Shown: positions 19,443 to 54,050, counted from the first letter of the stretch. The stretch is DNA of 64,000 bases from Candidatus Komeilibacteria bacterium RIFOXYD1_FULL_37_29 (GCA_001818495.1 MHKS01000005.1:466584-530583); one strand, 5' to 3'. Notes: generated by a model from the sequence alone, not told the origin. Program-made: numbers and translations.

Positions 19443-20933
19443 TTAAGCAGTTGGTAAATTAGGTGGGGCTTGGTTTTTATTTTTTGGCTTGGGCATGGTA
19501 TGAGCACCTTTTTTGGCGAAGCGTTCTTCAAAATGTTTGTTGGCCAAATCTACACTAAAACTAGGAGCCAGTAATTGCTTTCTAAGGTCCTCGGTGATTT
19601 GGCCCTTGTCTAAATCCATGCCTCTGGAAACAGGTAAAGAAAATGGTGGCTCAGATTTTTTACTTTCAGTCCGTTGTAGTAATGGTGCTTTAACAAATTT
19701 ACTTGGGAAGTGCCAAACAGTCGCCAATTCTTCTGTGTTTAAAATATAATACCCATGCCCTCTAGTGCCACTACGAGCCTTATAACCACGCATTAAGTTT
19801 ATTCTGCGCATAGCTACTCTGCTCTTAATGAAGAAATAATCAATCTTAGTCTTAGTTTTTTTATCTGGTTTAAAGGAATTTAAATCCATAGTGTTAAATT
19901 GTTTGATAGAACCAAAAACAGAAGAAATAACTCGAGAAGCGGAATACTTATCATTGGGCGAGATATAAATCAAACGCATTTTACACTCAAAACCGGTTTT
20001 GCCAGTTTTTCTCTCAATGGCCTCAATGGCTCCTTTCTCGCCAGGGGTTAAATGAAGCATCATAGACGGCAAAACATCTTTTTTACCGCTAGAAGTTCCC
20101 CCCTTTAAATCTTGTGGCCAAATCATCGGTTCACCGGTGGATAGAAAAAATAAACTAGTCATTGGGTCAATCAGTCTATTAAGCCATCCCTTTTTATCGG
20201 AAAACTTTTTACCAGCTATTTTATAAACCTCTCTTAAACCCCTTTTAGGCCAGTCAAAACCAGTTGGTCTTACTATAATTTGAATCCACACCTGTTCCCC
20301 AACTTGAATCTTACTCATGGTTTCGAGTAGTGATGATATGGGGTCTTTAAATTCTCCGGAAACATTGTCTTCAAATTCTGTATAAGTCCGAATAGGATAA
20401 ACATCTTTTTTATCCAAGATAACTTCGGTACCCCAAATATTATGAGTATCATTGGGATAATCATCCGGCACAGCCCCCACATAATCCTCTACTTCGGTAA
20501 TTTCAGCATCAGGATATTGTGAATAAATAGAACTTTCTATTAAATCACGATATTGGCTAGGGGTACGAATTAAAAATTGGACATAACCATCAATGCTGAC
20601 AATTTCAAAAGAGAAGCTAAGCTGAAAACGACCCTCTACATATATTTCTCTTAAATTAAGCGGATCATGCGCTCCAGAAATAGTAGAGAAAAGCTGTTCT
20701 ACGGCCTTAGGTGTTTGTTCGGTGTCTTTGGGGACATCAATGGCTAAAATCACGAATTTATTGGTATTAAACCATTTAATACTCTGCTTCATATGCCAAA
20801 TAGCAAAAAAACCCCGGACAATGATATAAAAATATATAATCCAGCCACCGTTTTTAAAAAAATACCAAGCTATGGCTCCGAAGCCTTGATTCATAGCCGC
20901 GTACAATGATGATAAATCTAAAGTTATTTCCAT
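19443..20933 (-). CDS. Membrane-anchored protein homologous to the N-terminal domain of the fused ATPase at 32753-35206. It is the N-terminal half of the split module.
   Basis: One N-terminal TM helix. FSFEIVSIDGYVQFLIRTPSQYRDLIESSIYSQYP aligns with FSAEIVSDGGFINFYIATPTNYRDFLIQQLQAVYP in the fused paralog. The gap to the ATPase gene is 2 nt. Confidence 0.6.
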   Translation of the reverse strand: MEITLDLSSLYAAMNQGFGAIAWYFFKNGGWIIYFYIIVRGFFAIWHMKQSIKWFNTNKFVILAIDVPKDTEQTPKAVEQLFSTISGAHDPLNLREIYVEGRFQLSFSFEIVSIDGYVQFLIRTPSQYRDLIESSIYSQYPDAEITEVEDYVGAVPDDYPNDTHNIWGTEVILDKKDVYPIRTYTEFEDNVSGEFKDPISSLLETMSKIQVGEQVWIQIIVRPTGFDWPKRGLREVYKIAGKKFSDKKGWLNRLIDPMTSLFFLSTGEPMIWPQDLKGGTSSGKKDVLPSMMLHLTPGEKGAIEAIERKTGKTGFECKMRLIYISPNDKYSASRVISSVFGSIKQFNTMDLNSFKPDKKTKTKIDYFFIKSRVAMRRINLMRGYKARSGTRGHGYYILNTEELATVWHFPSKFVKAPLLQRTESKKSEPPFSLPVSRGMDLDKGQITEDLRKQLLAPSFSVDLANKHFEERFAKKGAHTMPKPKNKNQAPPNLPTA

Positions 20934-21049: not shown

Positions 21050-22153
21050 TTATTCAGTTTTTAATGAATATCTGCCTTTTTCGTCCTTAGTAAAACGGTC
21101 TTTATTCATCAAAGCTAGAGTAATGGTAGTTTCTTTAATTAAACGTTTTTCTAATACGGCCTTGATGATTTCTTTCTTGGTTAACGGTTTGTCACTTTCT
21201 TTCAAAATATCAGCAATCACATCAGCCACTACGCCTGGCTTATAACCCCATTCTTTTAGAGCATAAATACCGCGACCAACCAAAACATATTTTTCATCCA
21301 AGATTAATTCGTTGTGAATAGTAGCTGGATAAGCCTGACGATGATCAAAAGCCATTTCATTTATAGTCTTGGCAATTTCCGTAAAATGCATCGGTTTGTC
21401 ATTTTTCTTGAGTACCAAATAGATCTTGTCATTCATACGACGAGGTGTAATATTTGCCCACTCAATCAATCCCCACTCATCATAAGGATTAGATTTTAAT
21501 TTTTTAGTAACTGTAATGAAGTTTACTACTACTTTATCAGTCAAATCATCATTTTGTTTGTAAAAATCAGTTTCTTTGATTTTATTCATTAATTCTTCCA
21601 AAATAAGCGCTTGACCATGGTTATCAATTAATTCACAAATATTACCAACGGTTTCATGAAATAAATCTACTTTAGCTTCCGGCGTTTTCCAAAATCCACT
21701 ATGCTGTTTTGATTCTTTAACAAAGTAAAAACGATGATTTAATAGTTGGTTTAAAATAAATCTAATAGCTGCTTTATTTTCTTCGGAAGTTCCGGGGATA
21801 GATAAAAGCTCATTGGTCAAATTGTCTTCAGACATCAAACCACCATGCTCGGAAAGAGTAGTGTTGGCGATCTCTTCAATCTCTTTTAAGATGGTCTGAT
21901 TGAAATTTTTGTTGATCTTCTTAAGAGAAGTATTTTCAATTTGTCTAATTCTTTCTCTGGTGACATTGTATTTTTTACCAATATCTTCTAGGGTTTTTTT
22001 CTCAGAACCAGACAAACCGTGACGCATTTTTATAATTTCTTGCTCACGTTCTGATAAAGCCGTCAAAATATTAACCAAAGTTTGATGGGGATCAAAATCA
22101 GAAAGTTTTGACAAATGTTTTGATGTAATGACTTGGTCTAAAATTCCAGACAT
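21050..22153 (-). CDS. Protein with an N-terminal sigma-70 region-4 HTH and an uncharacterised C-terminal domain of about 270 aa.
   Basis: LSEREQEIIKMRHGL...KTLEDIGKKYNVTRERIRQIENTSLKKI matches sigma-70 region 4.2. I recognise no sigma region 2 or 3. Confidence 0.55.
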   Translation of the reverse strand: MSGILDQVITSKHLSKLSDFDPHQTLVNILTALSEREQEIIKMRHGLSGSEKKTLEDIGKKYNVTRERIRQIENTSLKKINKNFNQTILKEIEEIANTTLSEHGGLMSEDNLTNELLSIPGTSEENKAAIRFILNQLLNHRFYFVKESKQHSGFWKTPEAKVDLFHETVGNICELIDNHGQALILEELMNKIKETDFYKQNDDLTDKVVVNFITVTKKLKSNPYDEWGLIEWANITPRRMNDKIYLVLKKNDKPMHFTEIAKTINEMAFDHRQAYPATIHNELILDEKYVLVGRGIYALKEWGYKPGVVADVIADILKESDKPLTKKEIIKAVLEKRLIKETTITLALMNKDRFTKDEKGRYSLKTE

Positions 22154-23206: not shown

Positions 23207-24877
23207 TTATTCTTTTACATTAACTCTTTTTACTCCAAATAAGGCCAATTTGCCTTCTAATTTTTTGTTTACTATTATTCTCAAAAATGTTCTAGTGACA
23301 GTAATAGCAGAAAACATGGATACCAGGATACCAATGCCCAAAGTAATAGCAAAACCTTTGATAATAGAAGTACCAAACCAAGCCAAAATTATACAAGTAA
23401 TAATTGAAGAGATGTTTGAATCTTTAATAGATGGCCAAGCTCTGGTAAAGCCATTTTCTATGGCGGTATTTAGGCTTTTACCTTCGCGCAATTCTTCTTT
23501 GGTACGCTCAAAAATGAGAACATTGGCATCTACCGCCATACCAATAGACAATATAAATCCAGCTACACCAGCCAAAGTCATAGTAACAGGAATAATCTCA
23601 AAAATCGCCAAGGTTAAAGCAGCATAAATAGCCAGAGCAACAACTGCTAAAAGCCCTGGCAACCTATAGAAAATTAACATAAACAAAGCGGCAGCAATAA
23701 AGCCAATTATACCAGCCAAAAGGCTTTGACCAAGAGATTCTTCTCCTAGACTAGCCCCGACTGTACTTTGGCTAATCAGTTCAATTGGCACTGGCAAAGC
23801 ACCTAAATTAAGATTTTTTACCAATTCTTTGGCTTCCAAAATACTAAAATTACCAGTAATTTGTGCTTGTCCATCTTTAATTGGTTCATTTACTACTGGA
23901 CTAGAAATCAATACTCCATCTAAAAATATAGCAATAGGCTTACCGACATTGTCTGTAGTCAACTCTCCAAAAAGATCACGACCCTTATCATTAAAGGATA
24001 ACAATACTAAAGGGGCCTGAGTATTTTGCTCAAAAGAAAGTTGAGCTTTAGCTATATCGCGACCACTTAAACCGGATTCTTCCCAAATAATATTTTCTAA
24101 ATCCGCATCTGTTTTTTGAAAAAGAATATGGGCTGAGTGTACTTCCAATTCTCCCTGATCATTCAATTTTTGATCTATTCTCTTTATAATATGATAGCCA
24201 AATTGTGATTCAATCAGCTCTTTAGAAATCTGTCCATCTTTTAAATCTTCAAAAATAGCTTTATCAAATTCCGGAACAAACAGTCCTTTTGTTACATAAC
24301 CCAAATCTCCGCCATTTATAGCTGATCCTGGGTCTTCACTATATTCTTTAGCTAAAGTAGAAAAATCTTCTCCCAGCAAAGCTCTATCCAAAACTTTCTG
24401 AGCATTAGCTTTTATTTCATTTTGCGCTTCGGTCACATTTTGCTCAGAAAGTTTTGCCTCTCCCTGTGTTTTAAATTCCAAATGAGGAGTCTTATCAATA
24501 ATAGCTATAGCTTCGTTGGCATCTTTAATTCCGGCTAATTCTACAATAATGCGATAATTATCACCACTAAAATTGGTCTGTACTACTGGCTCGGAAACAC
24601 CATAAGCGTTAACTCGTCTTTCAATAACATCTCGCAAAGCTTCCACGCCATCTCTTTTCTCTAATCCTTCTAAAGCTGAGACATCGGCTTGGTAGACCAA
24701 ATGTGTTCCTCCCTGAAGATCCAGACCCAAATGAACTTTAAACTTTCCAAACCAGCCGGGAGCGCTTGGCCAGACAATCAAACCGGCAAAAATAGCCAAC
24801 AAAAAAATCGCTAAAAATACGCTTCTAACTCTGGTGCTTGTCACTTGTTTATGTGATGTTTCGCTGTATTTATTCAT
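23207..24877 (-). CDS. secD: Protein-export membrane protein SecD carrying a parvulin-type PPIase domain inserted in its periplasmic P1 region.
   Basis: LGLDLQGGTHLVYQ is SecD and the C-terminal TM bundle is present. An embedded GEDFSTLAKEYSEDPGSAINGGDLGYVTKGLFVPEFDKAIFEDLKDGQISKELIESQFGYHIIK is a parvulin signature. Confidence 0.88.
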   Translation of the reverse strand: MNKYSETSHKQVTSTRVRSVFLAIFLLAIFAGLIVWPSAPGWFGKFKVHLGLDLQGGTHLVYQADVSALEGLEKRDGVEALRDVIERRVNAYGVSEPVVQTNFSGDNYRIIVELAGIKDANEAIAIIDKTPHLEFKTQGEAKLSEQNVTEAQNEIKANAQKVLDRALLGEDFSTLAKEYSEDPGSAINGGDLGYVTKGLFVPEFDKAIFEDLKDGQISKELIESQFGYHIIKRIDQKLNDQGELEVHSAHILFQKTDADLENIIWEESGLSGRDIAKAQLSFEQNTQAPLVLLSFNDKGRDLFGELTTDNVGKPIAIFLDGVLISSPVVNEPIKDGQAQITGNFSILEAKELVKNLNLGALPVPIELISQSTVGASLGEESLGQSLLAGIIGFIAAALFMLIFYRLPGLLAVVALAIYAALTLAIFEIIPVTMTLAGVAGFILSIGMAVDANVLIFERTKEELREGKSLNTAIENGFTRAWPSIKDSNISSIITCIILAWFGTSIIKGFAITLGIGILVSMFSAITVTRTFLRIIVNKKLEGKLALFGVKRVNVKE

Positions 24878-29512: not shown

Positions 29513-29887
29513 TTATCCAACAACAGTTTGTGCGTATAATTCACTCAATACAAATCTAGATACAGCATAAGCTACTAGTATGATAACCAAACCAACTACG
29601 CCAGCACCAATAAGCTTTTTAGCTTCATCAACCTTATCACTACTGCCATAAGAAGTCATCCATTTGAAACCACCAAAAAGAATAATCAAGGTAGTGAGGA
29701 TGCCTAAGAAACCCAAGATGATATTAACTACACCACCAATGGTGTCTCGAAGCGATCTTGATCCTAAGGCAATATCAGTGTTGGAGAAATCATTAAATCC
29801 CCAGTCATCTAAAGTAGTTTGAGCGTTAGCTGCTGCTGGAGCTAACAACAAAAGAAAAGTTAGTATTTTCTTCATAGAATTATGCAT
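29513..29887 (-). CDS. VirB2/TrbC-like pilin candidate with a Sec signal peptide and two hydrophobic helices. It is a paralog of the upstream gene.
   Basis: MKKILTFLLLLAPAAANA-QT is followed by two TM helices separated by a short polar loop. It is roughly 65% identical to the upstream protein. Confidence 0.5.
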   Translation of the reverse strand: MHNSMKKILTFLLLLAPAAANAQTTLDDWGFNDFSNTDIALGSRSLRDTIGGVVNIILGFLGILTTLIILFGGFKWMTSYGSSDKVDEAKKLIGAGVVGLVIILVAYAVSRFVLSELYAQTVVG

Positions 29888-29932: not shown

Positions 29933-30289
29933 CTAAAATGTTTCGCTGTAAAGCTCACTAAGCACAAATCTGGAAATAGCATAAGCCGTTAAAACAATGA
30001 TTAAACCAATTGCTCCAGCTATGACCACGCCTTTACCTTTTTCACTTTTTTCGGCATTACCACCAGATGTCATCATATTAAATCCTCCCCACAAAATAGC
30101 GACTGTTGTTAATATGCCTAAAAAACCCAAAATGATATTAACTACACCACCAATGGTGTCTCGAAGCGATCTTGATCCTAAGGCTACTTCGGCATCTGTA
30201 AAATCATTATACCCCCAATCGTCTAAGGCGGTCTGAGCATTAGCCATTATTGGTGCTAAAAGTAGTGCAAAGGCTAATATCTTTTTCAT
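29933..30289 (-). CDS. VirB2/TrbC-like pilin candidate with a signal peptide and two hydrophobic helices.
   Basis: MKKILAFALLLAPIMANA-QT is followed by DDWGYNDF, then VVNIILGFLGILTTVAILWGGF, a loop, then VVIAGAIGLIIVLTAYAISRFVL. The ORF-track start at 30325 lies upstream of the predicted TSS, so the Met at 30289 is used instead. Confidence 0.5.
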   Translation of the reverse strand: MKKILAFALLLAPIMANAQTALDDWGYNDFTDAEVALGSRSLRDTIGGVVNIILGFLGILTTVAILWGGFNMMTSGGNAEKSEKGKGVVIAGAIGLIIVLTAYAISRFVLSELYSETF

Positions 30290-30316
30290 AAATAACTTAT
30301 TTTTATTAATACCTAT

Positions 30317-30345
30317 ATTATACACTAATTTTGGATATTTGTAAA
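30317..30345 (-). promoter_or_regulatory. Strong sigma70-type promoter for the pilin-like gene pair: TTTACA, a 17-nt spacer, then TATAAT.
   Basis: The minus strand reads TTTACA-AATATCCAAAATTAGTG-TATAAT. Confidence 0.6.
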
Positions 30346-30474: not shown

Positions 30475-30494
30475 TTTGTTCGCTTGGTTCGGGG
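30475..30494. repeat. Copy 2 of the 20-bp direct repeat, spanning the last 10 nt of tRNA-Gln and 10 nt downstream of it.
   Basis: Identical to 30380-30399. Confidence 0.6.
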
Positions 30495-30558
30495 ACAGGG
30501 ACTCGAACCCCGATTGACGGGACCAGAACCCGTTGTCCTACCATTAGACGATCCCCGA
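30485..30558 (-). tRNA. tRNA-Gln (anticodon CTG) with an encoded CCA.
   Basis: A manual fold of TCGGGGA TC GTCT AATGGTA GGAC A ACGGG TTCTGGT CCCGT CAAT CGGGG TTCGAGT CCCTG TCCCCGA A CCA gives a cloverleaf. The acceptor stem has a U1-A72 pair, which is typical of tRNA-Gln. Confidence 0.88.
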
Positions 30559-30563
30559 ATATC

Positions 30564-32063
30564 CTAAAGCATTTCTCCTCCAAACGTTTTCAATATGTCG
30601 CCTACTTCACTCTCGTTTTTTCCCTTGAAATCCTGATGATTGTGTCGATAATTTGGGTCTACTTCAAAGCTTAGGTCTATTTTTTTACCTAAAATATCAG
30701 CAAAAATAGTTAATAGCTTATCTCGCACCGACAAATTATCTAATTGTTCTTTATGAAAACCATATTCCAAGCCAATAATAAGTAAATTCCGTTCAATTGT
30801 CAAAGGATGACTGGTCTGAAGAATCATTGCTACTGAATGATTAAGAGTTTTAGCATTGGTCACCACTTGATGCCAATTATTTTGTAATTTTTTGATTTCT
30901 GGAGATCCGTCTAGCGGTTTTTTACTCTCTTTTTGAAAATTCTTAAAATCGCTAGTTTTTTCACTAGAGCTATCTTGAGCTAGTAAAAATTCTACGCAAG
31001 TTAATTCCAGTGGTAATTGAACAATTATGGTTTCTTTGATTGATAATTTCTCCAATATTATATTGAGCAACTTAGAAATATCCTCTAACAAAAAATCTTG
31101 GGCATGTTTTTTAATAGCTTGGGTCAAATTATCATCAAAATCAATCACAAAGCTTGGTCCGATAATCTTATAAAGCATTATCTGCCTGATATAGTTGACA
31201 AAATCAGCCATAAAAACCGACAAATCACTACCTTCGTCCACTAAATTATTTATCTGATTTAAAGCTGTCGAAAGATTTTTTACCCGTAAAGCTTCCACCA
31301 AAGAATCCACTGCTTGCCAATTACTACTGGGTAAAACCAAAGAGGCTAATTCCTCCGTTACTTTTCCACCGCTAATAGAAATCACTTGCCCCAATAGAGA
31401 CTCAGCATCTCTGAGACATCCCTCACTGCGTCTGGCAATTTCTGATAAGATGTTTTCTGGCACCTGCACTTTTTCCCATTCTATTATTTCTGTCAGGCGT
31501 TTGATAATATCTTTATTGGGAATTTTTCTAAAATCAAATCTCTGACAACGTGAAATTATAGTTTCTGGAACCTTGTTTATTTCTGTAGTAGCCAAAATAA
31601 AAATTACTTTCTTGGGTGGCTCTTCCAGTGTCTTGAGCAAAGCATTGAAAGCTGATTTGGAAAGCATATGTACTTCATCGATAATAAAGACTTTATAGCC
31701 CTGGCTATTAAAAGGTGGAATTTGAGAATTGGCAATAATATTATCCCGCACATTATCTACTCCGGTATTGGAAGCAGCATCAATCTCTATAATATCCATA
31801 GACCGGCCAGCTAAAATCATCTGACAATTAGCACACTGGCCGCATGGCTCAGCTGATTTTTCTTGACGATTGAGGCAATTTAAAGAACGAGCAAAAAGAC
31901 GAGCCAAGGTAGTTTTACCGGTGCCTCGAGTTCCCACAAATAAATAAGCGTGGGCTAGGTTCCCACTCAAAATTTCATTTTCCAAAGTAATTTTTATCGG
32001 CCTTTGACCGACAACTTCCTTGAAAAATTTTGGTCGATATTTTCTATAGATTACTTCTGACAT
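30564..32063 (-). CDS. dnaX: DNA polymerase III subunit gamma/tau.
   Basis: YRPKFFKEVVGQ is present. Walker A is GTRGTGKTT. The zinc module is CGQCANCQ. Length is 499 aa. Confidence 0.9.
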   Translation of the reverse strand: MSEVIYRKYRPKFFKEVVGQRPIKITLENEILSGNLAHAYLFVGTRGTGKTTLARLFARSLNCLNRQEKSAEPCGQCANCQMILAGRSMDIIEIDAASNTGVDNVRDNIIANSQIPPFNSQGYKVFIIDEVHMLSKSAFNALLKTLEEPPKKVIFILATTEINKVPETIISRCQRFDFRKIPNKDIIKRLTEIIEWEKVQVPENILSEIARRSEGCLRDAESLLGQVISISGGKVTEELASLVLPSSNWQAVDSLVEALRVKNLSTALNQINNLVDEGSDLSVFMADFVNYIRQIMLYKIIGPSFVIDFDDNLTQAIKKHAQDFLLEDISKLLNIILEKLSIKETIIVQLPLELTCVEFLLAQDSSSEKTSDFKNFQKESKKPLDGSPEIKKLQNNWHQVVTNAKTLNHSVAMILQTSHPLTIERNLLIIGLEYGFHKEQLDNLSVRDKLLTIFADILGKKIDLSFEVDPNYRHNHQDFKGKNESEVGDILKTFGGEML

Positions 32064-32066
32064 AAA

Positions 32067-32726
32067 TCAAAGACTAAAATCAAGCTCGTCAGTAGAAATC
32101 TTTTTATGATTATTAATTTTTATAATATTTTCCACGGCTGCCCAACCGCTTTCAGAACCCTTTGGTACCAATATCACTACCTCATCCCCTTCTTCACCCT
32201 TAAAATAAGTGACTGAGGCCATGAGAAGTTTGTATATTTTATCTCCAGCTAAAACTACAAATTCATTGGTATTTCTGTCTTTAATCAAGTGTCCGACTAA
32301 GCGAGCTCTTTCTACTGGTGCTATTTGTTTGAAAATAAATGAACCGTCTAAACTGATAGTTAATTTTAAAATATCCCCTTCGACTAATTTTGATTTTGAA
32401 GCATAATTGGCTGGAACACTATACTGTTTGCCATCTGGACCAATCATTATTTGCCCGTTAAAAACACCTTCTACTACCAAGCCCTCATCACCATCTATTT
32501 GCTTGCCCACTTGAGCGGCTTTTAAACTATAGTTAGCGGCGTCTGAAGAAGTTCGGCCGGTCAATTCTCCTAAAACTTGTTTGGTTTTGGTGAGCTCTAA
32601 TTCTAAATTATATAATAAAGCTTCTAAATCTTTTATTTTTTTTGCTTTTGACATTTTGTTTTTGTTTACGAGCCTTGGTAGCTCTTTTTCCCCTAATAAT
32701 TTACCACAAAAATTGGCTCTTGGCAA
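32067..32726 (-). CDS. Hypothetical protein between dnaX and the fused VirB4-like gene. The likely start is Met25 at about 32654.
   Basis: An ORF with no motif that I recognise. Confidence 0.45.
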   Translation of the reverse strand: MPRANFCGKLLGEKELPRLVNKNKMSKAKKIKDLEALLYNLELELTKTKQVLGELTGRTSSDAANYSLKAAQVGKQIDGDEGLVVEGVFNGQIMIGPDGKQYSVPANYASKSKLVEGDILKLTISLDGSFIFKQIAPVERARLVGHLIKDRNTNEFVVLAGDKIYKLLMASVTYFKGEEGDEVVILVPKGSESGWAAVENIIKINNHKKISTDELDFSL

Positions 32727-32752: not shown

Positions 32753-35206
32753 CTAAACCATAGCAATACGACTATTTATCTCGCTTTCCACTACCCTTTT
32801 ATCGCGACCATATCTTAAGCGAGATAATTCCTTTATACTTCTAGCTAATTCATAATTACCCTTTTCCGGTAATATTGGATTAAAATTAAAAGCTGGCGGA
32901 TTTTGATTATCAATTAATAACCTAATATAGCAGGTGTATTTGGGCATGTTGATAAGATCATATTCAGTCACTACCGGTGCCATTTGTTTGGCTATGACTT
33001 CAGCATCGTCTACTCCGATTCGATAAGATACCAATGTACCAACATTGCCAAAGACAGAATCTTTGACGCTAGTATTATTATTTTTAGTTAATTGAGCCAA
33101 AAATTGATGAGCTAAAATCAAATTTAATTTATACTTTCTAGCCTCTGATAATATCACTGAGATGCTTTCGGTAATATAATTTTGAAACTCATCAATATAC
33201 AAATAAAAGTCTGCCCTTTCTTCTTCTGGTATATCCACCCGACTCAAAGCGGCAAACAATATTTTTCCGATCATAATCATGCCCAAAAGACTACTATTCA
33301 TTTCACCAATGCGACCTTTGGATAAATTGATAATAATAATTTTATTTTCGTCCATAGCTTTTCGAAAATTAAAAGCTGACTTCGCCTGGGAAATAATCGG
33401 CCGAATAGTATCGTTAGATATAAAAGGCGTTAATTTACTAGTAATGTAGGGCACCATATTGGCCAAGGCCGCTTCACCACCGGCTTTTTGAGCTTCTTTT
33501 TCCCAAAAATCTTTCACTAATTGATTTTTGGCTTTGGCTAATTTCTTTTTTCTATATTCAGCATCAGATAAAACTTTGGGAATTTCTAATAGTGTAGCCG
33601 AATTTTCTTTATCATCCATCAAAAGTAACATAGTATTTCTCATGTATTGTTCAAAAATCGGGCCGCCCGTTGCTTTGAGATCATACAACTTATCAAAAAT
33701 AGCAATCATCTCGTTGATTACAAAAGTTTTTTGTTCTTCTGTTTCAAACTCTAGCATATTGATGCCAATAGGACGTTCGGTGTCTGATGGATCAAAAAAT
33801 ATTACATCTTCCGCTCTGGCTTTGGGCACATGAGACAAAATAGTTTCTGCCAAATCTCCATGTGGATCCAAAACGCAAACACCCTTGCCATTAGCTATAT
33901 CTTGAATAGCCAAACTCTCTAAAAAGACCGATTTACCAGTACCGGTTTGCCCGATGGTATACATATGCCGACGACGATCAGCATCTTTTATTCTGACTAG
34001 GGTTTCTTTGCCACGATAAATGCTTTTACCTAACACTACGCCTTCTCTTGGCATATCCGCCGGTGGAGCTGCTTTGGCTGCCTCTAACCAAGCGATATTG
34101 GGTGTTTCACTGGTGGGCAGGGGTAAATGAATAATACTAGTCATTTCTTCTGAATTCAAAATCATACTACGTTTAGGCAAAAAATGACGATAAATAAAAT
34201 GTTCAATGTAAGAATCATTTTTTTTGGGTATCTGGGCTCTAAAACTATTGCCAAACTCATAGATATTGAATTGACTGTAGCTATTTAAAATGTCATTCAA
34301 AATCATACCAGAACGCTCCGAGCTGGGTGTAGAGACAACTACTCTGATATTGACCTCGAGAGCGGATTTGGAAGTTTTTTCTTCCATAGCTTTGGCTCTT
34401 TCCTGCTCCATAGCAGACATAAGCGGTTTTTCCTGAGGTTTGTTTAGTGGTTTTTCTTTTTCTTTGGAAGCAACAAAAGTACCAAAAAATTTTAAAACTT
34501 TACTGAGATTACCCCAAAATCCACCACCGCCAAGTTTTTTAACAGCCTCATTGTAATGAATACCAGTATACATATACTTGGCTATTTTTTTGCCGCGCGC
34601 GTGCCACCGCGCCGGAGCAGAGCGAAAAACATATTGGACAGCCGCCCCCTCTCCGTCTTTTAATTTACTCAAAGAATTGGTAATGGCTTCTAGTGGATCA
34701 TTTTCAAAATGACGATAAGTTTTTATTGGTAAGCTATAATCATTGGTAAAATAAAGAATACCCGCCTTGATATGACCCTGGGGCTGAAAAATATTATAAT
34801 CAACCGCTAGTTCAAAATATATTTTAGGATAAACCGCTTGCAGTTGTTGGATTAAAAAATCTCTATAATTAGTCGGCGTGGCTATATAAAAATTTATAAA
34901 TCCGCCATCCGAAACAATTTCAGCGGAAAAAACATCCGTCCGTCGGCTAAACATTTTTTTCTGAATTCTTAGTCCACTTAGAGCGGCAAACAAATTTTCT
35001 ACTTGCCCCAATTGTGTCTGGACATAATCTTTACCATACTCCTCTTTTTTCTGTTTGGTATATTTTGGTATTTTGACTAAAAGTATCTCCTGTTGAAGAC
35101 TTTTATTGGATTTATTGTTAAAATAATTTAATAAAAAATAAACAAAAATGCCCAAGAAAATAATTCCTATCAATGAAACTATAGCTATAGTGATATATTC
35201 ATTCAT
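32753..35206 (-). CDS. Fused VirB4/VirD4-superfamily ATPase of 817 aa. An N-terminal TM helix and a domain of about 370 aa are followed by a P-loop ATPase.
   Basis: Walker A is HMYTIGQTGTGKSV, followed by VLDPHGDL. Walker B is FYLYIDEFQ. The N-terminal half is homologous to 19443-20933 and the C-terminal half to 17749-19440. Confidence 0.75.
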   Translation of the reverse strand: MNEYITIAIVSLIGIIFLGIFVYFLLNYFNNKSNKSLQQEILLVKIPKYTKQKKEEYGKDYVQTQLGQVENLFAALSGLRIQKKMFSRRTDVFSAEIVSDGGFINFYIATPTNYRDFLIQQLQAVYPKIYFELAVDYNIFQPQGHIKAGILYFTNDYSLPIKTYRHFENDPLEAITNSLSKLKDGEGAAVQYVFRSAPARWHARGKKIAKYMYTGIHYNEAVKKLGGGGFWGNLSKVLKFFGTFVASKEKEKPLNKPQEKPLMSAMEQERAKAMEEKTSKSALEVNIRVVVSTPSSERSGMILNDILNSYSQFNIYEFGNSFRAQIPKKNDSYIEHFIYRHFLPKRSMILNSEEMTSIIHLPLPTSETPNIAWLEAAKAAPPADMPREGVVLGKSIYRGKETLVRIKDADRRRHMYTIGQTGTGKSVFLESLAIQDIANGKGVCVLDPHGDLAETILSHVPKARAEDVIFFDPSDTERPIGINMLEFETEEQKTFVINEMIAIFDKLYDLKATGGPIFEQYMRNTMLLLMDDKENSATLLEIPKVLSDAEYRKKKLAKAKNQLVKDFWEKEAQKAGGEAALANMVPYITSKLTPFISNDTIRPIISQAKSAFNFRKAMDENKIIIINLSKGRIGEMNSSLLGMIMIGKILFAALSRVDIPEEERADFYLYIDEFQNYITESISVILSEARKYKLNLILAHQFLAQLTKNNNTSVKDSVFGNVGTLVSYRIGVDDAEVIAKQMAPVVTEYDLINMPKYTCYIRLLIDNQNPPAFNFNPILPEKGNYELARSIKELSRLRYGRDKRVVESEINSRIAMV

Positions 35207-35209
35207 TTT

Positions 35210-35692
35210 TTATTTTGGTTGATTTATTTTTAATATTTTTTCTGTTTTTATTTTAGCTTCTTGCTCTAAATAATGCTTGTTTACTCTGGGTATAAGGCGC
35301 AACCATTCTAATATCAGTTTAGTAATTTCTTTTACTTTGATCTTGGCCTGCAACAACAAATTTGTAATTTTAACCGACACGTCTTCTCCTTTTGTTTTAA
35401 AAACTTTTTGAGTACCAGCATCTAAAGATAAATAAACATCCTCCATACCTTCTGCTAAGACATTTTCTATTTTTTGATGAATAACAGACGCTATATTAGC
35501 CTGTGCATTTGAAGAAGTCTCACCATCATCCAAATTTACAGTTGGCGAAATATTATCATTTTCCGGTTGTTCTTTACTTTGAGAAAATTTTTCTAATTTA
35601 GCGCCGTCTAAAGACTTTTCCACTGATTGTTCGGCGAATCGGCCTGATTCTTGACTAATCGACGGTTGTTCTATTCTTTTTTCTTTTGACAT
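35210..35692 (-). CDS. Hypothetical acidic 160-aa protein upstream of the fused ATPase.
   Basis: The gap to the ATPase gene is 3 nt. No motif is recognised. Confidence 0.4.
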   Translation of the reverse strand: MSKEKRIEQPSISQESGRFAEQSVEKSLDGAKLEKFSQSKEQPENDNISPTVNLDDGETSSNAQANIASVIHQKIENVLAEGMEDVYLSLDAGTQKVFKTKGEDVSVKITNLLLQAKIKVKEITKLILEWLRLIPRVNKHYLEQEAKIKTEKILKINQPK

Positions 35693-35699
35693 GCCTATA

Positions 35700-36173
35700 T
35701 TATACCAAATTTTGGCTTTTTAGGTAAGAATCTAGACTCTGATACAGTTTATCAGCCAAATTAATGGCCGGTAAAACATATCTGTGCCCGCCAGATAGTA
35801 TATAAATATTTTTATTTCTTTTGCGAACCGCTTTAATATCAGATAATTTTATAAAACCGACCAATCTAAAATCATTTTTATAAATTAATTTAAGATGAAC
35901 TAACCTTTTATTAGTCAGTAAATAAAAATTGTTGCGATCTAGCATGGCTCTAGCCAAGAAAAATATCAAAAATATTACCCAAATAACCCACAAAATAAGC
36001 CCCTGATAGCCCATTTTCCAGACTGGAAAAAGTATAAAAAATGTCATTAAAAAAAGCAGGATAATAAAAATTACCCTGGTCGAACTAGTCTTTGACTCAA
36101 AGACCATTTTTAAGTCTTCACTAACGGTCAAAAATTTGCTAAAATTATTCATGTTATGAATAAAAAAACTCAA
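35700..36173 (-). CDS. Membrane protein with a bacterial PH-like domain, similar to YdbS/YdbT.
   Basis: Two TM helices are followed by the LTNKRLV motif typical of bPH_2 domains. Confidence 0.5.
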   Translation of the reverse strand: MSFFIHNMNNFSKFLTVSEDLKMVFESKTSSTRVIFIILLFLMTFFILFPVWKMGYQGLILWVIWVIFLIFFLARAMLDRNNFYLLTNKRLVHLKLIYKNDFRLVGFIKLSDIKAVRKRNKNIYILSGGHRYVLPAINLADKLYQSLDSYLKSQNLV

Positions 36174-36250: not shown

Positions 36251-38023
36251 CTAAGAATCTTTTCTTAAAACGGCCAAATAAGCCTCTTGTGGTATTTCTA
36301 CTTTTCCACCTTGCGCCATGCGCTTTTTGCCCTTTTTTTGTTTCTCTAAAAGTTTTCTTTTACGAGTCACATCTCCACCGTACAATTTAGCTGTAACATC
36401 TTTACGAAGAGCTGAAAGTTTTTCTCCAGCTATTATTTTACCGCCCACAGCGGCTTGTAATTTCAAAACAAATTGCTGTTTAGGCAAAACCTCCTTCAAT
36501 TTATTAACAATCCGCTTGCCGACTTTATGAGCTTCATCTTTATAAACTAAACTAGTGAGAGCCTCTACTATATTTTCAGCTACCAAAATGTCCATTTTGA
36601 CTATGTCACACTCTCGATAATCGGCAAAATCATAATTTAGTGAAGCATAACCAGAAGATATACTTTTTATATTATCGTAAAAATCTACCAAAATTGAAGC
36701 CAAAGGAATGTCAAAACGAAGTATCATGCGAGTATCATTGATATATTCGGTATCTTTGGGTATGCCCCTTTGTGATATTACATATTCCATTAGCCCACCC
36801 ATATGTTCTTTAGGAGTAATAACTTCAATATGCATATAAGGCTCTTCAATATGATGAATCTTGGTAACATCAGGCATCTCCGCTGGAGTAGTCAAAACTT
36901 CTTTATCGCCGTTATTTAGATAAATATTATAAGCAACAGTCGGCGTAGTCACAATCAATTTTAAATTAAATTCTCGACTGATCCTCTCTTGAAAAATTTC
37001 CAAATGTAATAGCCCCAAAAAACCACAACGAAAACCAAAACCCAAAGCGGGAGAACTGGCCGGCTCAAAAATCAAGCTAGCATCACTTAATTTTAATTTG
37101 AGTATGGCCTCTCTTAATTTCTGATATTCGCTGCCCTCCTGGGGAAATATTCCGGCATAAACCATGGGCTTTATCTGCTTATAGCCAGCCAAGGCCTTGG
37201 TCGTCCGATCAGCAAAAATAATAGTATCGCCGACTTGGGCTTTTTCTAGATTTCTTACGCTGGTAATCAAATAACCAATCTCACCGTTTTTTAATCCACC
37301 AGAGCTGACCCAATGAGGCTTGAAATAGCCAACATCCAATACCTCGGTTGGTTCATTGCTGGCCACAAATCTTATTTTGTCGCCTTTTTTTATTTGTCCA
37401 CCAAAAACTCTGATATAGATTACCACTCCTCTAAACTCATCATAGGTGGAATCAAAAACCAGAGCTTGCAAATCATCTGATATTTTTTGCGGCGCTTTGA
37501 CTCTCTCTACTATAGCATCTAAAACCTGAGCCACACCTTGCCCAGTTTTAGCGGAAACAGACAATATCTCCTCGGCCTGACAACCCAATAAATTTATAAT
37601 TTCCCGACTGACTTTTTCTACATCAGCCGCTGGCAAATCAATTTTATTAATAACTGGTATAATGTCTAGATTCTGTTCTAAAGCCAAATAAAGATTGGCC
37701 AAAGTTTGAGCTTCGATACCCTGAGTCGCATCTACTAAAAGTAGAGCTCCTTCTACAGCAGCCAAAGATCTAGAAACTTCATAACTAAAATCAACGTGGC
37801 CGGGAGTATCAATTAAATTTAAAATTTTACCAGCCCAATCCATTCTGGCCGGCTGTAATTTGATAGTAATTCCCCTTTCCCTTTCCAAATCCATTTGATC
37901 TAGCATCTGATCTTTCATCTTACGTTTTTCCACCGTACCAGTAATTTCCAACATGCGATCAGCTAAAGTAGATTTACCATGATCGATATGAGCAATAATA
38001 CAAAAATTTCTAATTTCTTCCAT
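36251..38023 (-). CDS. lepA: Elongation factor 4 (LepA).
   Basis: EEIRNFCIIAHIDHGKSTLADRMLE and the LepA C-terminal domain are present. The ORF track extends to 38041, but the Met at 38023 fits the canonical LepA N-terminus. Confidence 0.95.
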   Translation of the reverse strand: MEEIRNFCIIAHIDHGKSTLADRMLEITGTVEKRKMKDQMLDQMDLERERGITIKLQPARMDWAGKILNLIDTPGHVDFSYEVSRSLAAVEGALLLVDATQGIEAQTLANLYLALEQNLDIIPVINKIDLPAADVEKVSREIINLLGCQAEEILSVSAKTGQGVAQVLDAIVERVKAPQKISDDLQALVFDSTYDEFRGVVIYIRVFGGQIKKGDKIRFVASNEPTEVLDVGYFKPHWVSSGGLKNGEIGYLITSVRNLEKAQVGDTIIFADRTTKALAGYKQIKPMVYAGIFPQEGSEYQKLREAILKLKLSDASLIFEPASSPALGFGFRCGFLGLLHLEIFQERISREFNLKLIVTTPTVAYNIYLNNGDKEVLTTPAEMPDVTKIHHIEEPYMHIEVITPKEHMGGLMEYVISQRGIPKDTEYINDTRMILRFDIPLASILVDFYDNIKSISSGYASLNYDFADYRECDIVKMDILVAENIVEALTSLVYKDEAHKVGKRIVNKLKEVLPKQQFVLKLQAAVGGKIIAGEKLSALRKDVTAKLYGGDVTRKRKLLEKQKKGKKRMAQGGKVEIPQEAYLAVLRKDS

Positions 38024-39605
38024 TTTTAAATAATAATACAAATTTCTTAAGCATCACCTTAACAATATTAAGCTCGTCAAGTCTAAACACTATACCTAAA
38101 AGCAGATAGCTTAGCAAGCCAACTAGCCCAGCCAGACCACCTTGGATAAATATACCCAAAAATGTCTGCATATCCACTACCTCAGCCAAAATTTGCAAAA
38201 CACCATAAGCGACTGCTCCGGCTAAGATAGAATTAAAAGAAATTTTTAAAATAGAATTGACAATCAAACTATCCCCTATATCCCGAACCTTGAAATGTAA
38301 GAAAATATATAAGAGCAGCATATTAATAATACTAGAAATAGAAAAAGCTAGAGCTAGACCAAAAACTCCCAAAGAATCTGAGAACTGCCAAGATAAAATG
38401 ATATTTATAATAATACTAATGATACTAATAATCATCGGCGTTTTGGTATCCTCATAAGCATAAAAAGAACGCCCCAAAAGTGGTATCAATCCTTGAGCAA
38501 AAATAGAAATGGCAAAAATACCCAAACTCTGAGCAGTTTGATAAGTGTTGTCCCAGTTAAAAGCTCCCGTACCCAAAATTACTCGAACAATCTGTGCTCG
38601 TAGTACTACAATTAAAACCGATATTGGAATCAACATAAACAATATCTTTCTCAAACTACTGGAAAAATTTTGGCTAAATAACTTGGAATTTTTCTCATTG
38701 ACCGCTTGCGTAAAAGTAGGAAATACAGCCACAGCCAAAGAAACTGCAAATAAAGATACGGGCAAACTTTGAATATTATTGGCATAATTAAAAACTGAAA
38801 TACTACCGACAGTCAGTGTCGAAGCAATCATAGTAATAATAACCAAATTAATCTGCCCAGCCGCTAAACCAATAGTGCGTGGTAACATCAACTTTAGTAT
38901 TTTCCTTAAATTATCATCAAACTTCAAGATAAATTTATAATGCCAACCATTTTTATAAACTTCTGGTAACTGCACCAACAAGTGCATAAGGGCTCCTAGT
39001 AATACTCCATAGGCCAAACCAATTAGACCAACTCGCGGATAAAAAAAGATAATGCCGATGATAATACCAATATTATAAAAACTAGCGGCCAAAGAAAAAC
39101 TAAAAAATCTTTTAAAAGAATTGAGTATTCCTCCAATCAAATTTGACGCTACAAAAAATAAAACCGACAAAAGCATTACCCTAGTCAATATAATTACCTG
39201 CTCAATCTGCCAAGCCTCAAAGCCCGGAGTGATCATAGGCATTAGTTGGGGCGTAAAAATAAAAAATATAACAATCAAAATTGTAATAAAAATCAAAAAT
39301 AAATTTAAAACTGAATTAGAAAGTTTTAAACCATCATCTTTATCTTTTAACCAGACTCTCTGAAATACCGGAATAAAAGCTGACGTTAAGGCGCCTAAAA
39401 CTAAAGTGTTAAATATCAAATCCGGCAAACGAAAAGCTGAATAATAAATATCGGACAACTGGCCAGCCGCAAAATTGTGAGCTATCAGTCTTTCCCGAAG
39501 CAAAGCAAATATCTTGGCCAATAAAGAAAAAAAGGTGATAATCAAAGCACCTCCGGCAACACTGTTATTAATTTTATGCCAAATATTTTGCCACATCATC
39601 CTCAA
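38010..39605 (-). CDS. murJ: Lipid II flippase MurJ (MOP superfamily).
   Basis: SLLAKIFALLRERLIAHNFAAGQLSDIYYSAFRLPDLIFNTLVLGALTSAFIPVF is the MurJ N-terminal signature. The protein has about 14 TM helices. Confidence 0.82.
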   Translation of the reverse strand: MRMMWQNIWHKINNSVAGGALIITFFSLLAKIFALLRERLIAHNFAAGQLSDIYYSAFRLPDLIFNTLVLGALTSAFIPVFQRVWLKDKDDGLKLSNSVLNLFLIFITILIVIFFIFTPQLMPMITPGFEAWQIEQVIILTRVMLLSVLFFVASNLIGGILNSFKRFFSFSLAASFYNIGIIIGIIFFYPRVGLIGLAYGVLLGALMHLLVQLPEVYKNGWHYKFILKFDDNLRKILKLMLPRTIGLAAGQINLVIITMIASTLTVGSISVFNYANNIQSLPVSLFAVSLAVAVFPTFTQAVNEKNSKLFSQNFSSSLRKILFMLIPISVLIVVLRAQIVRVILGTGAFNWDNTYQTAQSLGIFAISIFAQGLIPLLGRSFYAYEDTKTPMIISIISIIINIILSWQFSDSLGVFGLALAFSISSIINMLLLYIFLHFKVRDIGDSLIVNSILKISFNSILAGAVAYGVLQILAEVVDMQTFLGIFIQGGLAGLVGLLSYLLLGIVFRLDELNIVKVMLKKFVLLFKNGRN

Positions 39606-48339: not shown

Positions 48340-49353
48340 TTATTTGGCCGATAAAATACTCCTCTTATAAGACTCCAAATTTTCCAAGGCGATGCCCGTT
48401 CCACGGGCCACACAAAGAAGTGCGTCATCAGCGACATAGGCTGGCACGCCAGTGGCTTGGCTAAGTAATCTATCTATATTTCTTAAAAGTGCTGTACCAC
48501 CAGATAAGACCATCCCCTTATCCATAATATCAGCCGATAATTCCGGTGGAGTTTGGTAAAGCACCGACTTAACAGCTGTGATTAAACTTTGTAATTCATT
48601 TTGTAAAGCTTCAGTCACATCATCGGAATTGACCTTAACAGTGCGTGGTAAACCAGTGATCATATCTCGCCCCTTAATATCCATAGTTAATTTTTCTTCT
48701 TTTGGTAAAAATTGAGCACTACCAATTCTTATTTTTACTTCTTCAGCGCTACGTTCACCAATCGCTAGATTATACTTTCTCTTTATATACTCCCCAATAG
48801 CGGCATCATATTTATTACCACCAATTCTGACTGATGTATTGGCTACTATCCCTCCCAAAGAAATAACCGCTATTTCACTGGTACCACCGCCCATATCTAC
48901 TATCATATGCCCCGATGCTGACCCAATAGGAATATCAGCTCCAATAGCGGCAGCAATGGGCTCTTTGATAATATAAGCAGCTTTAGCGCCAGCATTTAAA
49001 GTAGCATCGATGACTGCCCGACGCTCCGTAGAAGTAATACCAGCTGGTACGGCGATCATAACTTCTGGACGAAATATTTTCATCCCACCAACTGCTTTAT
49101 TAATAAAATATTTAAGCATACTTTCCGTAATCCGATAATCGGCAATTACTCCATCTTTAAGTGGCCTGGCGGCAATAATAGAATCTGGTGTTCGTCCAAT
49201 CATCTCTTTGGCCTCATCACCAACCGCTAAAACTTTTTTATCCAAAACAGAAATAGCCACAACCGATGGTTCGTTTATGACTATACCTCTTTTGGGAATA
49301 TATACCAAGGTATAGGTAGTCCCCAAATCTATGCCAATTTTCTTTATAAACAT
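48340..49353 (-). CDS. MreB/Mbl-family actin homolog, paralog 2.
   Basis: GIDLGTTYTLVYIPKRGIVINEPSVVA and the downstream actin-fold motifs are present. Length is 337 aa. Confidence 0.85.
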   Translation of the reverse strand: MFIKKIGIDLGTTYTLVYIPKRGIVINEPSVVAISVLDKKVLAVGDEAKEMIGRTPDSIIAARPLKDGVIADYRITESMLKYFINKAVGGMKIFRPEVMIAVPAGITSTERRAVIDATLNAGAKAAYIIKEPIAAAIGADIPIGSASGHMIVDMGGGTSEIAVISLGGIVANTSVRIGGNKYDAAIGEYIKRKYNLAIGERSAEEVKIRIGSAQFLPKEEKLTMDIKGRDMITGLPRTVKVNSDDVTEALQNELQSLITAVKSVLYQTPPELSADIMDKGMVLSGGTALLRNIDRLLSQATGVPAYVADDALLCVARGTGIALENLESYKRSILSAK

Positions 49354-52997: not shown

Positions 52998-54050
52998 TTA
53001 GTGTAATCCCAAATCTTTAGCCGAAGGAAGAAGTATTTCTTTTAGGTTATCTAGATCATCCAATACCTTGCCCGTACCACGCACCACGGCTGTCAGTGGA
53101 TCATCAGTAATATGGACCGGCATTTTGGTTTCTTGTGCTATCAAAACATCTAGACCCTTAAGTAAGGCACCACCACCAGATAAGACCATCCCTTTTTCAT
53201 ATAAATCTGAAACCAACTCCGGTGGAGTATTTTCTATTGTGCTTTTTATATTCTCTATAATCAATCTAATGGGTTTAATAATCGCTTCTCTGATATTAGC
53301 ATCGGTGACTTGCACTTCCTTGGGCAAACCAGTTAAAAGATCTCGGCCACGAATAATGGATTTGACTGATTTTTCGCCCAAAATAACTGAGCCAATTTGT
53401 ATCTTAATTTTTTCAGCCGTACGCTCGCCTAATAAAAGATTAAATTTATCCCGAGCGTATTGAACAATTGCCTCGTTTAATTTATCACCAGCCATCTTTA
53501 ATGATTTCCATGAAACTACACCACCTAGAGAAATAACCGCTATCTCCGTAGTTCCACCGCCAATATCAACAATCATTGATCCAGAGGCCTCCTGAATAGG
53601 CAATCCAGCACCAATGGCGGCGGCCATAGGCTCTTCAATCAAAAGTACTTCTGATGCTCCGGCTCCCATGACAGAGTCCTCTACCGCTTTTCTCTCTACT
53701 TCCGTCACATCAAGTGGTATACCAACTATTACTCGCGGCCGAGGCATAAAAGTAAATGATTTACGATGCACCTTTTCAATAAAATGTTTAATCATTTTTT
53801 CAGTTACTTCAAAATCCGAAATAATGCCGTCAACCAATGGTCTAGTGACGGTAATATGCTGTGGAGTTTTTCCAAGCATGACTTTGGCATCTTCACCAAC
53901 GGCTACTATTTTTTCCGTACGATTATTAATAGCTACAATCGATGGTTCATTGATGACAATACCCTGATCTTTGACATAAACCAAAATATTGGCCGTGCCT
54001 AAATCAATGCCAATATCTTTGGAAAAATTTTTAAAAATTCTTCTAAACAT
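52998..54050 (-). CDS. mreB: Rod shape-determining protein MreB.
   Basis: IGIDLGTANILVYVKDQGIVINEPSIVA is the MreB N-terminus. The rest aligns to MreB throughout. Confidence 0.9.
   Translation of the reverse strand: MFRRIFKNFSKDIGIDLGTANILVYVKDQGIVINEPSIVAINNRTEKIVAVGEDAKVMLGKTPQHITVTRPLVDGIISDFEVTEKMIKHFIEKVHRKSFTFMPRPRVIVGIPLDVTEVERKAVEDSVMGAGASEVLLIEEPMAAAIGAGLPIQEASGSMIVDIGGGTTEIAVISLGGVVSWKSLKMAGDKLNEAIVQYARDKFNLLLGERTAEKIKIQIGSVILGEKSVKSIIRGRDLLTGLPKEVQVTDANIREAIIKPIRLIIENIKSTIENTPPELVSDLYEKGMVLSGGGALLKGLDVLIAQETKMPVHITDDPLTAVVRGTGKVLDDLDNLKEILLPSAKDLGLH

Follow-up and report, generated by a model that had tools for sequence, protein, structure and literature searches.

A coupling-protein-like ATPase with a small upstream partner and a dnaX link in Komeilibacteria and related Patescibacteria

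The DNA described here is a stretch of 64,000 nucleotides from Candidatus Komeilibacteria bacterium RIFOXYD1_FULL_37_29 (GCA_001818495.1 MHKS01000005.1:466584-530583), referred to as the window. It carries a gene for a membrane-anchored ATPase of 817 amino acids (aa; 32753-35206), which joins an N-terminal domain that looks like that of VirB4 to a motor of the type IV coupling protein (T4CP) kind. This fused gene is chromosomally fixed, is inherited vertically throughout the ultra-small Patescibacteria and lies among housekeeping genes. In the lineage group that includes the Komeilibacteria genome it belongs to a conserved cassette consisting of a 160-aa partner gene, the ATPase gene, a gene for a putative tandem-OB-fold protein and dnaX. 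All window features given below are on the minus strand, and positions are counted from the first nucleotide of the window.

Results

Domain architecture of the fused ATPase

The ATPase gene was identified by open reading frame (ORF) calling and by Pfam and NCBIfam matches, and the protein shows 62% mean column identity over 22 homologues. A single N-terminal transmembrane helix (residues about 1-31; 35117-35200) was detected in a hydropathy scan and appears as a helix of residues 3-30 in an AlphaFold2 (AF2) model. Lysines follow this helix and, by the positive-inside rule, predict an N-out, C-in topology with the body of the ATPase in the cytoplasm. The ATPase domain comprises residues 391-817 (32756-34036), as assigned by Pfam and by sequence matches in the PDB. 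It contains a Walker A motif, GQTGTGKS (residues 419-426; 33929-33952), and a Walker B motif, YLYIDE (residues 668-673; 33188-33205), both of which are invariant in the homologues. An earlier, model-made reading of the window (the sequence-only reading) had described a transmembrane-anchored ATPase, and this description is confirmed.

The sequence-only reading had also called the protein VirB4-like. Pfam models matching above their gathering cut-offs were TrwB_AAD_bind (residues 410-745; E 5e-9, 36 bits, cut-off 20.5), T4SS-DNA_transf (residues 395-741; E 1.7e-8, 34.2 bits, cut-off 20.1) and TraG-D_C (residues 667-737; E 3.9e-5, 24 bits, cut-off 22), and DUF87 matched with E 3.8e-8. In contrast, the VirB4 model TIGR00929 scored 13.1 bits against a cut-off of 643, AAA_10 stayed below threshold (12.5 versus 27.5 bits) and CagE_TrbE_VirB gave no match. 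When a profile of the ATPase family was compared with PDB sequences, TrwB and DotL were the sole significant matches, and TrwK was absent from this search even at E 10. Scores for named T4CP families lay below the equivalog cut-offs of NCBIfam (SXT_TraD, 46.6 versus 366 bits; CD1115, 31.2 versus 250). The FtsK_SpoIIIE model remained below its gathering cut-off (16.5 versus 24 bits) and covered residues 390-432 only, that is, the P-loop; the alpha and gamma domains of FtsK were not found. Judged by its sequence, the motor domain is of the T4CP kind (VirD4/TrwB/TraD, FtsK-HerA superfamily) and not VirB4. What stands of the VirB4 likeness is the fold of the N-terminal domain and the layout of the protein.

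The region between the membrane anchor and the motor (residues ~35-390; 34037-35104) is an alpha/beta domain that was delimited by the AF2 model, Foldseek and the family PF26449 (DUF8128). Precomputed PF26449 assignments exist for P0001, a protein of 100% identity, and for each of the 120 listed homologues; our local Pfam scan gave no PF26449 match. The AF2 model of residues 1-395 had a predicted local distance difference test score (pLDDT) of 85.7 and a predicted TM-score (pTM) of 0.82. In a Foldseek search of the PDB with the DUF8128 model, the top 14 matches were all TrwK/VirB4 of R388 (E 1.8e-6 to 2e-3, probability 0.99-1.0), at a low TM-score to TrwK (TMq ~0.39) and in a match list that carries no aligned residue ranges. 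Because no other P-loop ATPase is among these matches, the similarity was taken to concern the N-terminal domain that is specific to VirB4. DUF8128 thus looks like a VirB4 N-terminal domain in the modelled fold only.

In its P-loop motor and its N-terminal membrane anchor, the window ATPase resembles the T4CPs VirD4, TrwB of R388, TraD and DotL. It differs from them in having one transmembrane helix, where canonical T4CPs usually have two, and in the ~350-aa DUF8128 domain between anchor and motor, which is absent from TrwB and VirD4. Its setting differs as well, since the gene lies on the chromosome, occurs in nearly all of the phylum and has a link to dnaX, with no relaxase or type IV secretion system (T4SS) operon around it. 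With VirB4 (TrwK of R388) the protein shares a length of ~800 aa and the order of an N-terminal domain followed by a C-terminal ATPase, but its motor is closer to the T4CPs by about six orders of E value. FtsK/SpoIIIE, a DNA pump, belongs to the same superfamily and is likewise anchored in the membrane, but the window ATPase lacks its alpha and gamma domains and its four-transmembrane (4TM) region.

A split paralogue in the same window

The two halves of the fused protein also occur as separate genes in the window. A free-standing DUF8128 protein of 496 aa (19443-20933) was recognized by profile comparison (hhalign 99.8%, E 4e-29 to the DUF8128 profile) and has no Pfam match. The adjacent gene (17749-19440) encodes a T4CP-type ATPase of 563 aa, assigned by Pfam, that carries a treble-clef zinc finger at its C-terminus and shares 45% identity with residues 390-810 of the fused ATPase (E 4e-120). 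Since this split paralogue is encoded in the same window, the halves of the fused protein are separable modules, and the term "fused" in the sequence-only reading proved appropriate. Fused and split genes are two distinct paralogues. The split pair directly follows a gene with Sigma70_r4 and HARE-HTH domains (21050-22153).

Distribution and conserved neighbourhood

Homologues of the fused ATPase form at least 5,312 protein clusters at E <= 1e-10, and every name attached by a source was Patescibacterial; the titles of some third-party records of metagenome-assembled genomes (MAGs) read Gammaproteobacteria or Bdellovibrionales, with unchecked labels. In a scan of one genome per species, the gene was detected in at least 596 GTDB species at 45-86% identity. 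The neighbourhood was analyzed by calling ORFs in 86 related loci (82 distinct), with clustering by jackhmmer and BLAST. According to the record labels, the sampled lineages are Komeili-, Uhr-, Falkow-, Magasanik-, Kerfeld- and Buchananbacteria.

In 68 of the 78 loci with upstream DNA, the ATPase gene is immediately preceded by a small partner ORF. This ORF belongs to the family of the 160-aa protein in 54 of them and to a second family in 14. The gap between the 160-aa family gene and the ATPase gene has a median of 4.5 nt, is at most 20 nt in 46 of the 54 loci and becomes a 4-nt overlap in 11. Downstream, dnaX was found within 3 kb of the ATPase gene in 43 of the 64 loci with at least 2.5 kb of downstream DNA, and the 194-aa OB-fold gene lies between the two in 35 of the 64. 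Eight loci without the OB-fold gene have only 6-32 nt between the ATPase gene and dnaX. The outer flanks vary by clade, with lepA-murJ-DUF4012 in the closest relatives and CorA, CysS, Dus or SerS elsewhere. As the flanks differ between clades, the core of the cassette persists while its surroundings change.

The sequence-only reading had proposed a three-gene neighbourhood in which a PH-domain membrane protein and an acidic protein are accessory partners of the ATPase. This holds for the 160-aa protein, which is conserved and tightly coupled to the ATPase gene. It does not hold for the 157-aa PH-type protein, which was detected in 9 of the 86 loci, corresponding to 7 of the 82 distinct loci, all of them close relatives and always with lepA upstream. 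The 157-aa gene is a lineage-specific local addition outside the core cassette.

The upstream partner families

The 160-aa partner (35210-35692) had been described as acidic, which is incorrect for the protein as a whole. Its pI is 6.77 with equal numbers of acidic and basic residues (D+E = K+R = 25), and only its N-terminal half is acidic (pI 4.9, compared with pI 9.4 for the C-terminal half). The same division is seen in the family: the N-terminal half (~75 aa) is variable, acidic and without conserved sequence, and the C-terminal half (~85 aa) is conserved and basic (WLKxIPGVNKFFLEQEAKIKTD) and is taken to be helical. The protein has no transmembrane segment and is predicted to be cytoplasmic. 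No match to the family was found in Pfam, in a PDB sequence search or in PADLOC, and it is annotated as hypothetical in every source.

The second partner family (~141-200 aa) is also placed directly upstream of the ATPase gene (loci L057, L058, L061, L062, L068, L070, L075-L077, L079 and L081-L083). Its members have an acidic, variable N-terminus and a small conserved C-terminus (KGVxHAVKVAxxLxDxYxLDxxHD). The two families share position and build; no homology between them was detected (hhalign probability 0.2%). In a rough neighbour-joining tree, the ATPases with the second partner form one clade within the fused family.

In one locus (L052, 3694-6726, plus strand) the 160-aa family appears to be fused in frame to the ATPase, giving a protein of 1,010 aa. 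This fusion was set aside as Rosetta-stone evidence, as it occurs in a single MAG and a lost stop codon is an equally likely explanation. It also conflicts with a cytoplasmic partner, because the partner domain would precede the transmembrane helix and come to lie on the wrong side of the membrane.

The putative OB-fold protein and the PH-type protein

The ORF between the ATPase gene and dnaX was called with 219 aa (32067-32726). Homologues point to an ATG at 32651 as the likely start, which yields a protein of 194 aa (32067-32651). In the AF2 model (pLDDT 80), a helical region at the N-terminus is followed by two beta-barrels. A homologue search yielded at least 7,962 proteins, none with a Pfam family. 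The protein itself has no Pfam match, and a search against PDB sequences returned coiled-coil noise only. From the model, it is a putative single-stranded nucleic-acid binder with tandem OB domains of the S1/cold-shock-like type.

The 157-aa ORF (35700-36173) probably starts at an ATG near 36152 (MNNFSKFL). The sequence-only reading had assigned it two transmembrane segments and a bacterial PH motif. Hydropathy analysis agrees on the two segments (29-56 and 53-80), and 6 of 8 orthologues matched bPH_3 (best E 6e-4) and also 6 of 8 the PH-containing family VPS13_C, but the window copy itself gave no bPH match at E up to 1. A PDB sequence search with the family returned nothing. A protein with two transmembrane helices and a bacterial PH domain is the probable assignment.

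Candidate counterparts in Southlakia epibionticum

A survey of 3,035 Patescibacteria genomes counted 5,713 VirD4-type homologues in 2,918 of them (96%), about two per genome, of which just 148 are near virB4; VirB4 was present in 2,417 genomes (80%), and a distinct VirB4 clade was reported separately (PMC12102498). The count of about two per genome agrees with the presence of a fused and a split paralogue.

In Southlakia epibionticum, the only relative amenable to genetics, SEML1_0142 (1,019 aa, P-loop 381-800) is a core and Patescibacteria-enriched gene that was scored ES at all three time points of transposon sequencing (Tn-seq) and placed in class I (Wang et al. 2023, PMC10633639, Tables S1/S2). 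The gene SEML1_0141 (139 aa) lies 12 nt upstream, had zero insertions and was scored GD/ES/ES (PMC10633639). A further gene, SEML1_0293 (921 aa, PF10412 at 402-719), adjoins the Sigma70_r4+HARE-HTH gene SEML1_0294 and is non-essential (PMC10633639). SEML1_0141, SEML1_0142 and SEML1_0293 are all absent from the main text of that paper.

As in the window, the genome thus has two T4CP-like genes, each with a domain-unassigned N-terminal region of ~360-380 aa before the P-loop domain. SEML1_0142 resembles the fused gene in having a small ORF (~140 aa) directly upstream, and differs from it in being longer and in not adjoining dnaX. Its small neighbour SEML1_0141 probably belongs to the second, non-homologous partner family and not to the 160-aa family. 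We infer from the shared Sigma70_r4+HARE-HTH adjacency that the split pair corresponds to SEML1_0293. The t4cp homologue of S. epibionticum that was reported as non-essential (PMC12102498) fits SEML1_0293.

Relatives on plasmids and phages

Outside the phylum, a 913-aa "DUF87" protein encoded on a 65-kb Bacillus subtilis plasmid (CP120602.1) is homologous over both DUF8128 and the motor (hhalign 99.9%, E 5e-34). Its gene precedes genes with the annotations conjugal transfer protein, TcpD and TcpE (TcpC/D/E-like), which are followed by an ORF with a P-loop that was called VirB4-like by eye. Full-length homologues with 21-24% identity were also found in large Bacillus phages, namely phage G (gp156, JN638751.1 90868-93207) and SPO1-like phages, with a tblastn coverage of 78-93%. 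The phage family phrog_5156, of unknown function, matched residues 80-811 of the ATPase at E 4.6e-83. These Bacillus plasmid and phage proteins resemble the window ATPase over the full length, including DUF8128; they differ in their location on mobile elements. The plasmid and phage relatives show 21-29% identity. Viral contigs gave five matches only, at 27-32% identity and to the ATPase domain alone, and no close relative of the ATPase was found on viral contigs or plasmids.

PADLOC reported mad8 on the ATPase domain only (E 2.7e-17), and the split-paralogue ATPase repeated the same mad8/HerA matches to its ATPase domain. A scan of five further proteins, namely the three small neighbours and the split pair, revealed no other mad gene or defence family. 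A MADS defence system was rejected, as mad8 covers the ATPase domain alone and none of the other mad genes appeared in the scanned proteins.

Other features of the window

The order of genes given by the sequence-only reading, from lepA through to the pilins, was recovered in full by ORF calling. It starts with lepA (36251-38041), which is followed by the 157-aa and 160-aa ORFs, the ATPase gene and the 194/219-aa ORF. Next comes dnaX (30564-32063), encoding the clamp-loader tau/gamma subunit, which was called as an ORF and is supported by precomputed Pfam matches to DNA_pol3_delta2 and DNA_pol3_gamma3 on homologous loci. A tRNA-Gln(CTG) gene (30485-30558; ARAGORN) lies 5 nt past dnaX. Intergenic gaps of 3-7 nt had been claimed, and those between the 157-aa and 160-aa ORFs (7 nt) and between the 160-aa ORF and the ATPase gene (3 nt) are of this size; the gap between lepA and the 157-aa ORF is 77 nt. 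The 194/219-aa ORF ends 3 nt before dnaX. Every listed ORF of the window has conserved homologues and can be regarded as a real gene, and for the 219-aa and 160-aa ORFs the database contains Komeilibacteria proteins of 100% identity.

The two downstream genes (29933-30325 and 29513-29887) encode VirB2-type T4SS pilins, as had been suggested; they match PF18895 with 39.4 and 33.2 bits (gathering cut-off 26.6). Pilins of this family are near the ATPase gene solely in the window and in loci L001 and L011. Pilin linkage was therefore rejected as a sign of a local T4SS operon. The best promoter-like match of the region (11/12; 30317-30345) overlaps the GTG at which the first pilin ORF is annotated to begin; this ORF probably starts at a downstream ATG (MKKILAF...). 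This gene may have its own promoter past tRNA-Gln.

The remaining genes of the window are housekeeping genes (SecA, SecDF, AlaRS, MnmA, Ddl, UppS, MurJ, MreB, PBP2, RseP, RecJ and glycosyltransferases). Nearly all genes are on the minus strand, GC content ranges from 33 to 41%, and no integrase, repeat or compositional break was found in the 64 kb. In SecD (23207-24877), a PpiC-type peptidyl-prolyl isomerase (Rotamase) domain is inserted between the first P1 segment and the P1 head; the same is seen in locus L003 (14751-16418). Two MreB paralogues (48340-49353 and 52998-54050) lie less than 5 kb apart and flank a gene for a PBP2-type transpeptidase. An ORF of 1,609 aa (810-5639) has no Pfam match at E up to 0.01.

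Discussion

The reading that we consider best, and to which we would give about an even chance, is that the cassette encodes a nucleic-acid translocase with an adaptor. A nucleic-acid theme is suggested by the tandem OB folds, the dnaX link and the T4CP lineage. Characterized members of this lineage move DNA. The ATPase would assemble into a ring on the cytoplasmic side of the membrane, to which its single transmembrane helix anchors it, and DUF8128 would be its docking platform, as the N-terminal domain of VirB4 binds membrane subunits. The motor might pump or hand over nucleic acid, most likely DNA, and the C-terminal half of the 160-aa protein would be bound to it as an adaptor or regulator. 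For DotL it is known that the coupling protein works with small adaptor proteins. The OB-fold protein would hold the single-stranded substrate, and co-transcription with dnaX would tie the activity to DNA synthesis.

Several observations weigh against such a translocase. A scan of 38 of the window's 63 ORFs with a length of 90 aa or more, all large minus-strand ORFs among them, revealed no VirB4, VirB6 or relaxase. Promoter and terminator scans were at chance level (42 versus 31 +/- 7 and 8 versus 5.8 +/- 2.6, respectively), so that the operon structure is deduced solely from gap sizes. Fetching the 80 best-scoring of at least 596 matches over-samples the query's own lineage group, and synteny in genomes that rarely rearrange may overstate functional coupling. 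A clade of 16 of the 82 distinct loci, 14 of them with the second-type partner, has a non-homologous partner and no dnaX link. The Foldseek matches of the OB-fold protein are weak (E 1e-3 to 0.1, probability up to 1.0; RNase R, exosome S1/CSD, IF1 and the Rho N-terminal domain). Finally, SEML1_0142 and SEML1_0141 are identified as counterparts of the fused gene and its partner by inference from architecture, synteny and elimination.

A second explanation, of real but limited probability, is that the essential Patescibacterial T4SS has its missing coupling ATPase in the fused protein, which would then recruit protein effectors, not DNA, and hand them to a VirB4/VirB6/pilin apparatus that is encoded elsewhere, while the upstream protein would be chaperone-like, as IcmS/IcmW are for DotL. 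The T4SS of S. epibionticum is essential, its cluster has no recognizable coupling protein or relaxase and it may export proteins, and SEML1_0142 is itself essential (PMC10633639). The closest full-length relative outside the Patescibacteria is found in a conjugation cluster beside a separate VirB4, and the VirB4-like N-terminal domain suggests docking to membrane subunits of a T4SS. VirB2-type pilins are encoded 2 kb downstream in the window, and T4CP genes are often located away from virB4 (PMC12102498). However, VirD4-type genes occur in more genomes than VirB4 and few of them are near virB4, as counted above. Most genes of the T4SS cluster were scored GD at T0 and ES only later, whereas SEML1_0142 was ES already at T0 (PMC10633639). 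The conserved neighbours of the ATPase gene are dnaX and the OB-fold gene, not secretion genes, and the pilin linkage is not conserved.

It is unlikely, in our view, that the ATPase is a T4SS-independent housekeeping DNA motor which works with the replisome in segregation, in the processing of replication products or in chromosome tethering, and which was exapted from a conjugative coupling protein. The conserved adjacency to dnaX speaks for such a motor, as does the higher prevalence of VirD4-type genes over VirB4. SEML1_0142, the probable homologue, is a class I essential gene, and this class is enriched in genetic information processing (PMC10633639). Exaptation of t4cp genes was raised by the authors of the survey, who state that it cannot be ruled out (PMC12102498). 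Against a housekeeping motor, dnaX is not linked to the ATPase gene in the clade with a partner like that of S. epibionticum, and no known replisome contact motif was identified. A simple replacement of FtsK was rejected: the FtsK of S. epibionticum (SEML1_0096) is complete, with its alpha, gamma and 4TM domains, and is essential (PMC10633639), and the FtsK Pfam match of the window ATPase is below threshold.

A bolder combination, which we regard as quite unlikely, is that the fused ATPase and its partner are an essential, overlooked energizing or coupling unit of the Patescibacterial T4SS which moves DNA in step with the replisome, for example host DNA as a source of nucleotides or for recombination. 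If true, this would explain why the ATPase gene is kept in a transcription unit together with dnaX and the gene for an OB-fold single-strand binder.

The distant full-length homologues on plasmids and phages, phrog_5156 and the mad8 match could suggest that the locus is left over from a prophage, a defence island or an integrated conjugative element, with unrelated small ORFs as neighbours. This is very improbable. Relatives on mobile elements are at most 29% identical; no integrase, relaxase or other mobile-element gene was found among the scanned ORFs of the window, and no mobile-element gene in the 82 loci. Core genes are neighbours in every locus, the ATPase gene keeps its position across at least 596 species, and its partner ORF is conserved, with stop and start codons that overlap. 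The view of the sequence-only reading that the system is chromosomally fixed and not part of a mobile island is supported by this breadth of species, by the housekeeping neighbours and by the lack of close viral or plasmid relatives. As to ancestry, domestication from a mobile element fits, because the architecture exists on mobile elements of monoderm bacteria. This agrees with published work that traces the Patescibacterial T4SS to conjugation systems of monoderm bacteria (PMC12102498).

That VirD4-type homologues are near-universal in Patescibacteria, mostly located away from virB4 and possibly exapted, has already been published (PMC12102498). In the literature searched we found no mention of DUF8128 or its VirB4-like fold, nor of the fused/split paralogy, the small partner families, the OB-fold neighbour, the dnaX linkage or an essential status of the likely counterpart. 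The architecture and the partners appear to be undescribed, as does the link to dnaX. To the published count of VirD4-type genes, the present analysis adds that there are two distinct paralogues, of which the fused one has an N-terminal domain with a VirB4-like fold, a conserved small partner and a tie to the OB-fold gene and dnaX. It adds further that the probable S. epibionticum counterpart and its upstream ORF are essential in the Tn-seq table. Patescibacteria account for much of the bacterial diversity that is uncultivated, and they rely on host cells; questions about them include how building blocks are acquired and which cargo the essential T4SS carries. The fused ATPase provides a testable candidate for a core membrane motor of these bacteria, with three unannotated protein families alongside.

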